64,000 nucleotides of DNA from Candidatus Krumholzibacteriota bacterium (GCA_963806035.1 CAWDWO010000008.1:26839-90838), one strand, 5' to 3'; shown: positions 31,046 to 33,496, counted from the stretch's first letter. The notes: generated by a model from the sequence alone, not told the origin. Numbers and translations: made by a program.

Positions 31046-31732
31046 ATGAATCCTTCCCGCAGTCTCATGTTTTTCTCACTCGGCTTCGCCGTCTTTCTCT
31101 TGAGCCCGGCGTACCTCGTGGCCTCCGCGCCCCCCGAGGGACTTCTGCGCGTGGGAGACCTGCTCGATCTCTTCACTCCGCTGGTTTTGGTGCCTCTTTA
31201 CGCTCTCCTCTTGTACCAGCGTGACGGCGCCTGGCCCCGCTGGCCCAAGATGCTTCTGTTCCTCCTGCTCTGCGCCGCCTGGGTCGAAGGACATTCGGTC
31301 CACCTGGCCGCGAATGCCCTGGGACATTTGCTCGATGCCCAGCCGCCGAGCGCGGCCTACCGCCTGGACTACTTCCTGGACGAACACCTGAGTCACGTGG
31401 TGTGGCATGCCGCCATCATCCTGCTCGCGTGCCTGCTCTTGGTGCGGGGCAAACTCGAAATGGAAGTTTCGCGGTTGAGCTGCATCGTGAGTGCCGTGCC
31501 CTACGGATTCAGCTATTTCGCGATCACGGTCGAGGGACAGACTTCTGCGATGGGAATCGTCGCGGCGCTGGCGCTCTCGGGATTCATCGCTTCGAAGTTC
31601 AGAGAACGTCGACGAGATGCATACTCCGTCTTCTTTCTCATCGCGCACTTGCTGGCGCTCATCCTCTACCTGATCTGGTTTCTGATGAACGGGGGGCTGC
31701 CCCAGTTCAGCGAAGTTGGTCTATTGAAATGA
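31046..31732 (+). CDS. Hypothetical multi-pass membrane protein
   Basis: GGAGG RBS and about 7 TM segments, with intramembrane His motifs EGHSVHLAAN and DEHLSHVVWH. Confidence 0.7.
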   Translation: MNPSRSLMFFSLGFAVFLLSPAYLVASAPPEGLLRVGDLLDLFTPLVLVPLYALLLYQRDGAWPRWPKMLLFLLLCAAWVEGHSVHLAANALGHLLDAQPPSAAYRLDYFLDEHLSHVVWHAAIILLACLLLVRGKLEMEVSRLSCIVSAVPYGFSYFAITVEGQTSAMGIVAALALSGFIASKFRERRRDAYSVFFLIAHLLALILYLIWFLMNGGLPQFSEVGLLK

Positions 31733-31845
31733 AGAGACTGCCAACGAGAAGAGACCGCCCCAAAAGGAACGGCCTCTCATTCTTGCTGCCGGCGCGGCGC
31801 AGCTGCTAAAGGGCGTGCGCCGCGGGAGCAGGAAAACGCGGGTTT

Positions 31846-32112
31846 TTACATGATCACGAAATCGTGGGCGCGCACCGTCTTGCGGCCGTTCGCCTTGGCG
31901 CGCTTGGCGGCCTGCTCGATGTACCAATAGACAAGGCCATTGAGACCATCGAGAGCATCACCGGCAACGTTGACACCGTGCTTCTTGAGCGCGACCTTGG
32001 TCTTGCTCCCCACGAGCAACATCTCCATGGCGGCCTTCCTGGGCGCGGCCTTCTTTCTCGTCGTCTTCTTCTTGGCGGTCTTCCTCTTGGCAGCGGTCTT
32101 CTTCTTGGCCAC
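31846..32112 (-). CDS. Bacterial histone-fold protein with a Lys/Arg-rich N-terminal tail (88 aa)
   Basis: GTG start 6 nt after AAGGAGG. Core MEMLLVGSKTKVALK...GDALDGLN...AAKRAKANGRKTVRAHDF ends in the RKTV..xD motif of prokaryotic histones. Confidence 0.88.
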   Translation of the reverse strand: MAKKKTAAKRKTAKKKTTRKKAAPRKAAMEMLLVGSKTKVALKKHGVNVAGDALDGLNGLVYWYIEQAAKRAKANGRKTVRAHDFVIM

Positions 32113-32264
32113 AGTGGGCCTCCTTGGGTTTTGATTGTCAAACGAGGAGCCGGTACCATACCGGTCCTTCAAGATCGACAACGAGTCCGAGGGAAGTCCT
32201 ACCCTTGGTGCAGTACACCGTGATGGAGTGGGGTCCCATTGCGACCCGTGCGCTGTAAGAGCCG

Positions 32265-32293
32265 GAAATAACTCAATCGCGCTGCGACGGCAA
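32265..32293 (-). promoter_or_regulatory. Putative sigma70-type promoter of the histone gene
   Basis: TTGCCG-17 nt-TATTTC on the minus strand. Confidence 0.45.
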
Positions 32294-32353
32294 GCGTTTT
32301 CGCGAGAACTTGTCCTCTGCCGAGCTGAGTTTGCTCGGCTCGGACCGCCATTC

Positions 32354-33496
32354 TCAGCGAGCAGCTGCCTCACTCGCGGCCGGGACTTTCTGGATCGCGA
32401 CCAACTCGAGTCGCAGGATGAGCGGACTGTTCGCGGGGACGACCCCCGGAATGCCTCGTGCGCCGAAACCGAGCCTGGCGGGAAGAAACACCCAGCGCTC
32501 TTCCCCCACCCTCATCTGCAGAAAGTTCATCTCCCATTGGAGGCCTCTGCGGGGCTCGCCCGCCTTGAGCACTTTGGGCTGTCCTTCCTGATAGGTCGAT
32601 TCCACCACTTTGCCGTCGGGAAGGTAGCAAGCGTAGTTCACCACGATGGACTGCCCCTGCTGCGGCCTCTTCCCCTCACCCTTCTTGCTTGTGATGGTGC
32701 GGCTGCCATCGCGCTGCTCGCGCGATTTCTTGCGCAGTGGATCGACCCTCTCGTGGAAGCGCTGCGTGTGCAAACGGGTGAGCTGGGTCGCGTTGAGGTC
32801 CTTGAGCTCTTGAAAGGTGGCCTCGGCGTCGAAGTTCTGGGCCGCCTTCCCGCGGCGTATGAACTTCACCGAGCGCAAGTGCACGTCCTCCGTCGGCTTT
32901 TCCTTCTCGGTGGGCACGGAGGAGATCGCCGAGACGACGTCCATCCCGAGCACGACCCTGCCGAAGATGCTGAAACGGCGATCGAGTTCGGGCTCGCGCT
33001 TCTCGGTGATGAAGAATTGACTGCCATTGGTATTGGGACCCTGGTTCGCCATCGCCAAAATCCCGGGATGATCAAACCTCAGGCCGGGCACGATTTCGTC
33101 GCGGAAGCGATAGCCGGGTCCCCCGGTACCAGTACCGGTGGGATCGCCCGTCTGGATGAGAAAGCCGCCGACAACCCGGTGGAAGATTACGCCGTCGTAG
33201 AACGGTTTCTGCGTCGTTTCACCGGTCTGCCGGTTGACGAGCTTCCGCGTCCCTTCGGCGAGACCCACGAAATTGGCGACAGTGAGGGGAGCGCGCTGGA
33301 AGTAGAGTTTGCACACGATGGCGCCCAGATCGGTCTGAAGCACCGCGTACAGACCATCGTCGGCGGTCGCTTCTTCGATGGTGCCGTAGCTCGGACCGCT
33401 CGCCTCGTCGGTGACATTTTGCGCGTGAACGGAGCTTAGCGGCGGAATGAGAAGCAATACGACGAGAAGAATGACTCTTGCGGAAGCGCGGTGCAT
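32354..33496 (-). CDS. Exported cyclophilin-FKBP fusion peptidyl-prolyl isomerase
   Basis: Signal peptide. Cyclophilin motifs FHRVV, QTGDPTGTG, MANQGPNTNGSQFFIT. FKBP motifs VNYACYLPDG, MRVGEER, GVVPANSPL. Confidence 0.9.
   Translation of the reverse strand: MHRASARVILLVVLLLIPPLSSVHAQNVTDEASGPSYGTIEEATADDGLYAVLQTDLGAIVCKLYFQRAPLTVANFVGLAEGTRKLVNRQTGETTQKPFYDGVIFHRVVGGFLIQTGDPTGTGTGGPGYRFRDEIVPGLRFDHPGILAMANQGPNTNGSQFFITEKREPELDRRFSIFGRVVLGMDVVSAISSVPTEKEKPTEDVHLRSVKFIRRGKAAQNFDAEATFQELKDLNATQLTRLHTQRFHERVDPLRKKSREQRDGSRTITSKKGEGKRPQQGQSIVVNYACYLPDGKVVESTYQEGQPKVLKAGEPRRGLQWEMNFLQMRVGEERWVFLPARLGFGARGIPGVVPANSPLILRLELVAIQKVPAASEAAAR

Follow-up and report, generated by a model that had tools for sequence, protein, structure and literature searches.

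Histones have been recognized in bacteria only recently. To our knowledge, only two of them, HBb and HLp, have been studied structurally, and both are without a long tail. A short gene from a bacterium of the uncultured phylum Candidatus Krumholzibacteriota raised the question of whether such a histone carries a long basic N-terminal tail, whether that tail is translated and what it would do. The window analysed here is a whole stretch of 64,000 nt (GCA_963806035.1, CAWDWO010000008.1:26839-90838), and positions are counted from its first letter. An initial annotation of the window had claimed a histone of 88 aa, with a eukaryote-like tail, within a mis-extended open reading frame of 175 aa. 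The gene and its start were placed as follows.

31846..32112, minus strand: histone gene, 88 codons plus TAA, GTG start (translation, PDB sequence matches, homolog search).
32119..32125, minus strand: Shine-Dalgarno (SD) sequence AAGGAGG, with a spacer of 6 nt to the GTG (sequence; family orthologs).
31846..32373, minus strand: mechanical open reading frame of 175 aa, an upstream over-extension of the histone gene and not a gene (ORF list).

The gene, read from 32112 to 31846, opened with GTG GCC AAG AAG, and the protein ended in RKTVRAHDFVIM, followed by TAA. Translation of this interval gave the same 88-aa protein that had been claimed, and the strong ribosome-binding site of the claim was the AAGGAGG listed above. 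The first codons of the 175-aa frame overlapped the 3' end of the upstream PPIase gene (32354-33496), and an in-frame stop lay about 18–19 codons 5' of the GTG in two genomes of the same genus (loci L087 and L089). We therefore interpreted the 175-aa form as an artefact of open frames in DNA of 61% GC. In such GC-rich DNA the frame ran far upstream (175–221 aa), so that an open frame by itself proves nothing.

The larger part of the gene encoded the fold.

31849..32028, minus strand: histone-fold core, codons 29–88 (AF2, Foldseek, HLp alignment, conservation in 109 sequences).

AF2 modelled the core with block-mean pLDDT of 87–97, as helix alpha1 (residues 35–43), helix alpha2 (53–74) and an alpha3 of a single turn (82–84). 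The RKT motif occupied residues 77–79, and R77 and D84, aligned to R55 and D62 of HLp, formed a clamp. These helices, together with a loop 2 of the RKTxxxD type (R77-K78-T79, D84) and its Arg-Asp (RD) clamp, assigned the protein to the alpha3-truncated class of histone folds, as did the top Foldseek matches, HLp, HBb and HTkC. Among 109 relatives, N75 and R77 were invariant, and R71, T79 and D84 were each conserved in at least 90%.

The closest known structure was HLp in every comparison. A sequence search of the PDB with residues 26–85 matched HLp (9qt0) at E = 4.4e-10 and 46% identity. Weaker matches were HBb/Bd0055 (8cmp, 4.1e-5, and 8fvx, about 4e-5) and the archaeal HTkC (9f2c, 7e-3). A profile built from the 109 sequences gave HLp (2.2e-23), HBb (2.4e-15) and HTkC (3.5e-14), then HmvA, HMfA and NF-YB. 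Foldseek placed HLp (9qt1/9qt0) at the top, with TM (target) of 0.96/0.95 and rmsd of 0.7–0.8 Å; HBb and HTkC followed, and nucleosomal histones came only later. Thus AF2, Foldseek and PDB sequence matches agreed on the histone fold of about 60 aa that had been expected behind the tail. The core had been likened to the Bd0055 and Leptospira histones alike. It is related to both, and the profile refined the claim, in that HLp is nearer than HBb.

The domain databases missed this fold. Neither PF00808 (CBFD_NFYB_HMF) nor PF09123 (DUF1931) matched the protein at E ≤ 1, and among the 109 relatives they matched 11 and 4, respectively (E ≤ 0.01). The NCBIfam model archaea_histone gave 15.6 bits, below its cut-off of 50. 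For this reason many relatives carry the label hypothetical.

According to the accessible text of Hu et al. (2025, PMC12701072), HLp forms a stable tetramer with about 60 bp of DNA wrapped on it. Its two dimers are held by contacts of R49, S52 and N53 with R55, T61 and F63, and the same text describes R49, N53 and R55 as conserved among predicted tetrameric bacterial face-to-face (FtF) histones. The six contact residues aligned here to R71, A74, N75, R77, H83 and F85, which placed R71, N75 and R77 at the three positions of the FtF tetramer. Of the nine DNA-contact residues of HLp, six were identical (S36, K37, K39, K43, G51 and T79) and three differed (A13>G35, T27>V49 and T56>K78).

A model of four copies of residues 27–88 passed its controls, with ipSAE of 0.89, where the best of three controls gave 0.08. 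Of 30 proteins solved as one-chain pairs, 20 attained that mark, as did 1 of 23 solved single chains. The runs shared at least 96% of their contacts, with partner pLDDT of at least 92. The modelled dimer-dimer contacts (residues 67, 70–71, 74–75, 77, 81, 83–84 and 86–87) lay on the surface equivalent to that of HLp. This pass shows likeness only and may reflect memory, because a like complex (9QT0) has already been solved.

HBb/Bd0055 of Bdellovibrio bacteriovorus (PDB 8CMP, 8FVX and 9EZZ) offers a different model, in which the protein would work as a dimer on its own, bending or coating DNA, and not as a wrapping tetramer. HBb has the same alpha3-truncated fold (38% identical, TM 0.86–0.90) and was the second-best match by structure as well as by sequence, and the support for the tetramer is a model. 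On the other hand, HBb is a tail-less DNA-bending dimer, and 'bacterial dimer' histones of its kind are without the FtF residues R48 and N52 (Schwab et al. 2024, PMC11390915, available portion). The equivalents R71 and N75 are present here and conserved. Moreover, the family profile matched HLp better than HBb by eight orders of magnitude, and the modelled dimer-dimer interface was made of HLp-equivalent residues. Since the core is nearer to HLp than to Bd0055/HBb, a DNA-wrapping tetramer is to be preferred as the model, and we consider a stand-alone dimer unlikely.

The tail precedes this core.

32029..32112, minus strand: tail-coding part, codons 1–28, predicted to be disordered (composition, AF2, homolog tail survey).
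32063-32109, minus strand: 18-nt tandem unit, 2.8 copies, 84% matches, encoding approximately A-K-K-K-T-x (Tandem Repeats Finder).

Residues 1–28 comprised 11 K, 3 R, 8 A, 4 T, 1 P and 1 M, with no D or E. The counts of the initial annotation (28 residues, 11 Lys, 3 Arg, 4 Thr, no acidic residue) were exact. The net charge of the tail was +14, and that of the core +5. The AF2 block-mean pLDDT over residues 1–30 was 47, 52 and 68, which left the first 28 residues or so unstructured. HLp (PDB 9QT0/9QT1/9QT2, Leptospira perolatii) shares the truncated alpha2 and alpha3, the RD clamp and the tetramer residues. In the form of HLp that was characterized, about 7 N-terminal residues are disordered, against the 28-aa tail of charge +14 in the present protein.

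The term eukaryote-like suited the tail in part. Eukaryotic and Asgard tailed histones also have a disordered basic N-terminal extension before the histone fold, and the charge of +14 over 28 residues and the pLDDT of 47–68 correspond to such an extension. Their core is of another class, in which alpha3 has its full length and the tetramer is held by a four-helix bundle. Conserved tail motifs with dedicated enzymes, as in eukaryotes, were not found; the tails of close homologs vary in sequence and length, and no conserved modification motif appeared in them. The likeness held for charge and disorder only. The tail itself was a K/A/T/R/P sequence of low complexity that had no sequence match among PDB chains.

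This composition is, we presume, nearer to linker-histone or Hc-type tails than to H3/H4 tails. With its K/A/T/P low complexity it would resemble linker histone H1, chlamydial Hc1/Hc2 and some HU tails. It differs from the H1/Hc tails in being joined to a histone fold, and the protein matched no histone or H1-like Pfam family at E ≤ 1, HC2 (PF07382) included. No HC2-family gene was found in its genome, and none of the three open frames of its HU/IHF proteins had a K-rich tail. Among the 109 relatives, two were matched by HC2, a chlamydial H1-like family, through their lysine-rich tails (E down to 6.6e-6).

Tail presence in homologs, which had been proposed as a check, was surveyed in the best 120 of 2122 homologs found at E ≤ 0.001. 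A basic tail was defined by K+R of at least 30% and at most one D/E. Of these 120 proteins, 119 were singlets, and 118 of the 119 had a basic tail, 10–37 aa long (median 22). A tail length of 15 aa or more was reached in 107, and of 20 aa or more in 74. The sole exception (P0003) was the same tailed protein under an over-extended gene call. Eight four-residue openings, MAKK and its near variants, accounted for the starts of 114 of the 119. The pooled tails were 46% K and 29% A, followed by R, T, S and P; D/E was outside the ten commonest residues. With basic tails in 118 of the 119 close singlets, the tailed feature is not a chance run. The sequence and length of the tails varied but their composition was kept, and insertions and deletions have therefore preserved the Lys frame of the AAG-rich DNA. 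Within the genus the tail was 27–38 aa long. The repeat suggests that the tail grows and shrinks by slippage at the 18-nt unit, a likely source of the fast change in length.

Representatives at 50% identity gave a wider view (252 matches at E ≤ 0.001, the best 150 examined). Basic tails of 8–49 aa were found in 46 of 118 singlets, 17 of them being at least 20 aa, and in none of the 32 doublets (pseudodimers). This set fits the statement, in the available part of Hocher et al. (2023, PMC10627809), that most bacterial singlets are without long tails.

Other architectures were seen among the same best 150 of 252. Four singlets (P0143, P0144, P0152 and P0157) had long acidic C-terminal tails of 32–60 aa and no N-terminal tail. 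Four of the 32 doublets (P0168, P0175, P0249 and P0268) began with a hydrophobic, leader-like stretch of 27–51 aa. In P0187 (650 aa) and P0212 (515 aa), an FtF-like histone domain lay near the C-terminus behind hundreds of unrelated residues; these two may be fusions or gene-call artefacts.

A single-protein scan of reference genomes found relatives in Planctomycetota, Krumholzibacteriota, Bdellovibrionota, Elusimicrobiota, Acidobacteria, Nitrospirota, Myxococcota, Chloroflexota and several archaeal groups. Their N-termini ranged from a bare MAKK (many Elusimicrobiota) up to about 36 residues. The 80 reference-genome loci are biased to AKANGRKT cores, because the scan was seeded by six peptide patterns.

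Closer to the organism, the tailed ortholog was found in all four other genomes of the genus and in eight of nine of the family. Other families of the class gave weaker matches only (E 3e-10 to 9e-4, in 20 of 31 genomes), and the two of these that were examined were tail-less or short-tailed histones. The assembly itself (2.67 Mb in 41 contigs, 93.7% complete) contained one histone gene and three genes of the HU/IHF family.

A second, more distant histone match was present in relatives of the genus and family (E 1e-5 to 1e-7; G001:C6:269770-269937, G003:C5:132991-133158 and others). It was not found in the 93.7%-complete genome studied here.

The histone gene was surrounded by genes for an S49 peptidase, a CLN6-like membrane protein, a cyclophilin-FKBP fusion and an ArsP-type permease. 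The order PPIase-histone-S49 was kept in the flanks of all four other genus genomes, and in none of four other family loci and none of six loci from other phyla. In Leptospira, HU and Dps are said to be absent and hlp to stand next to smc and map (PMC12701072, in its accessible text). The present genome differs in having three HU/IHF genes, and no chromatin-related neighbour of that kind (smc, map) was found at the histone locus.

Two of the neighbours have features of their own. The PPIase gene, directly upstream of the histone gene on the same strand in this genus only (32354-33496, minus strand), encodes 380 aa, with cyclophilin-type and FKBP-type prolyl isomerase domains behind a hydrophobic N-terminus. 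On the plus strand, 31046-31732 encodes a membrane protein of 228 aa whose Pfam CLN6 match (27.0 bits, E 3.8e-6) was exactly at the cut-off. CLN6 (ceroid-lipofuscinosis neuronal protein 6) is known as a eukaryotic family. Within the short flanks covered, the CLN6-like gene was matched in two of the four other genus genomes.

The initial annotation had proposed that the tail serves chiefly as a regulatory platform, on which acetylation, methylation or phosphorylation of Lys and Thr tunes the chromatin as in eukaryotes and Asgard archaea. The tail does expose 11 Lys and 4 Thr along a disordered segment, and the genome contains two HDAC-family genes and one partial SIR2 match. Asgard histones have acetylated tails with writers and erasers, as described in the accessible part of bioRxiv 10.64898/2026.07.02.735847. 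However, the HDAC and SIR2 families also matched 9 and 10 of 14 ordinary control genomes, respectively, and no SET domain was found in the 93.7%-complete genome. No modifier gene stood among the neighbours of the histone gene (a secreted PPIase, a membrane protein, an S49 peptidase and a permease), the synteny of which was limited to the genus. Composition alone was conserved in the tails, with no tail motif, and the available text of PMC11390915 states likewise. With no SET domain, generic HDAC and SIR2 matches, no adjoining modifier and no conserved motif, chromatin regulated by modification of the tail found no support, and we regard it as improbable.

The DNA upstream of the start showed conservation of its own.

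32113..32305, minus strand: leader/promoter region of about 190 nt, conserved in the genus (alignment of five genus genomes).
32173-32188, minus strand: invariant 16-mer of the leader, GGACTCGTTGTCGATC (five-genome genus alignment).

In the five genomes, 125 of the 206 alignment columns of the leader were invariant, including two runs of 16 nt, and pairwise identity was 69–97%. For comparison, the neighbouring PPIase protein was only 61–82% identical in the same genus, and the DNA further upstream barely aligned. A search of 31700-32500 against Rfam with permissive filters returned no match at E ≤ 1. The predicted fold of the leader (MFE -64.8 kcal/mol) was not unusually stable, with z = -0.37 and 73 of 200 shuffles folding equally well. 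RNAalifold, applied to the five leaders, which fall in two subgroups, gave 54 pairs, only four of which were changed on both sides, with a covariation term of +0.24; among so few sequences no clear covariation was seen.

The same alignment fold suggested that an upstream CUUCCC sequesters the SD sequence. This candidate was rejected, as the pairing was not above that of dinucleotide shuffles at the 11 scorable loci; two loci in which SD and start were not recognizable by pattern were left out. At the strongest loci, 3 and 10 of 60 shuffles reached the observed pairing, and at most loci 23–52 of 60 did.

No sigma-70 promoter-like site was found at the gene, and two terminator-like sites were no more than shuffles gave. 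The leader matched only itself in its own genome, with no second copy. A search of metagenomes with the 16-mer found at least 120 stretches. A histone lay downstream in only one (L157) of the 80 loci examined, and we interpreted the other matches as chance.

The conservation of the leader could mean that the histone is controlled post-transcriptionally, with the leader as a regulatory RNA or a protein-binding site, for example in autoregulation by the very basic histone, and that a choice between the GTG and the ATG of residue 29 gives mixed tetramers of tailed and tail-less subunits. We consider this quite unlikely. If it were true, the gene would provide a tunable bacterial chromatin particle without eukaryote-type enzymes.

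The choice of start bears on whether the tail is made at all. In all nine family orthologs (the gene studied here and those of G001–G004 and G006–G009), AAGGAG(G) lay 6–9 nt before an ATG or GTG opening M/V-A-K-K. The tails read from these nine sequences were 22–38 aa long. From this SD at the MAKK start, together with the conserved basic tails, we concluded that the tail is very probably translated.

The contrary reading has translation start at M29 or M31 and takes the K-rich stretch as an untranslated AAG-rich leader. In the 119 close singlets (best 120 of 2122 homologs), the position of M31 was Met in 115 and that of M29 in 62, the latter being otherwise K, A, L, Q, V, T, G, I or S. A weak 4-nt AAGG preceded the ATG of M29 by 5 nt, and the frame stays open far upstream, as noted above. 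There is also a precedent in HLp, which was characterized as a 63-aa form; on the basis of where the SD lies, its authors dismissed the 77-aa annotation (PMC12701072, accessible text). Annotated tails in the FtF family are for this reason not automatically real.

The sequences around M29 did not bear out an internal start, which the initial annotation had named as the outcome that would leave the tail unmade. A strong conserved SD before M29 was not found across the homologs with DNA, in contrast to the full AAGGAGG before the GTG. Where position 29 was not Met, at loci with DNA, its codon (CAG, GGC, CTG, AAA and others) was not a start codon, and only about half of the close singlets had Met there. 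Furthermore, the Lys frame was the one kept in 118 of the 119, never the Glu or Arg frames of the AAG repeats, although the tails varied in length, and MAKK or a near variant opened 114 of the 119. With the start site, the reading frame and the opening residues all conserved at the tail, we consider an untranslated tail very unlikely. The AAGG before M29 leaves room for less, in that an additional, minor tail-less isoform may start there.

RNA libraries were also searched. Contigs from four of them spanned the start codon with at least 31 nt on each side, and one contig of 496 nt covered 31858-32307 with 46 differences. These four metatranscriptome runs yielded contigs of relatives (85–99% alike), from which the start, strand and level of a transcript are not derivable; most pieces at 32060-32110 were short AAG-rich contigs of other organisms. 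We gave this support little weight, since the ends of a transcript are not visible in contigs and such libraries may contain DNA.

On the whole, we think it likely that the gene encodes an alpha3-truncated FtF histone, started at the GTG, with a disordered tail of 28 residues, and that this histone forms an HLp-like tetramer wrapping DNA, with the tails on the DNA. The gene, its fold family, the conserved interface residues and the conservation of the tail are established, while the tetramer, the wrapping and the role of the tail are drawn by analogy with HLp. In the tetramer, contact between the two handshake dimers would be made by the C-terminal part of alpha2, by loop 2 and by the short alpha3. 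DNA would wrap the continuous basic rim of this tetramer without sequence preference, as does the 60 bp or so wrapped by HLp. The GTG start behind the strong ribosome-binding site would place a tail on each subunit, adding +14 to each and +56 to a tetramer. The tail would exit the fold about 7 residues before the DNA contact at the 'paired end of helices' of alpha1 (G35-S36-K37), and it would most likely run along the DNA, either the wrapped part or DNA close by. In that position it may neutralize phosphates, raise affinity and compaction and perhaps bridge other segments of DNA. Since three HU/IHF-type genes are present, the histone would act alongside other nucleoid proteins and is not necessarily the major one.

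A tail of this kind is not new among bacterial histones. According to the available text of Schwab et al. (2024, PMC11390915), FtF histones commonly have tails in bacteria, and not in archaea. These tails are described as having no conserved sequence, as mostly positively charged and as 'H3-like'. The tail studied here and those of its homologs have the same charge and the same lack of sequence conservation. A literature search found no study testing the tail of an FtF histone.

The available parts of PMC11390915 and PMC12701072 list bacterial FtF histones for Spirochaetota, Planctomycetota, Bdellovibrionota and Myxococcota. Krumholzibacteriota was not named in the searchable supplementary files of PMC11390915, and a full-text literature search found no paper on a histone in this phylum.

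The tailed FtF histone is thus a kind of bacterial chromatin protein already described, of which this gene is a clean example, and the current picture of bacterial chromatin is unchanged by it. The family appears to be extended by it to Krumholzibacteriota. With its compact gene, the strong ribosome-binding site at the start of the tail and orthologs throughout the family, this histone is suited to a comparison of the protein with and without its tail.
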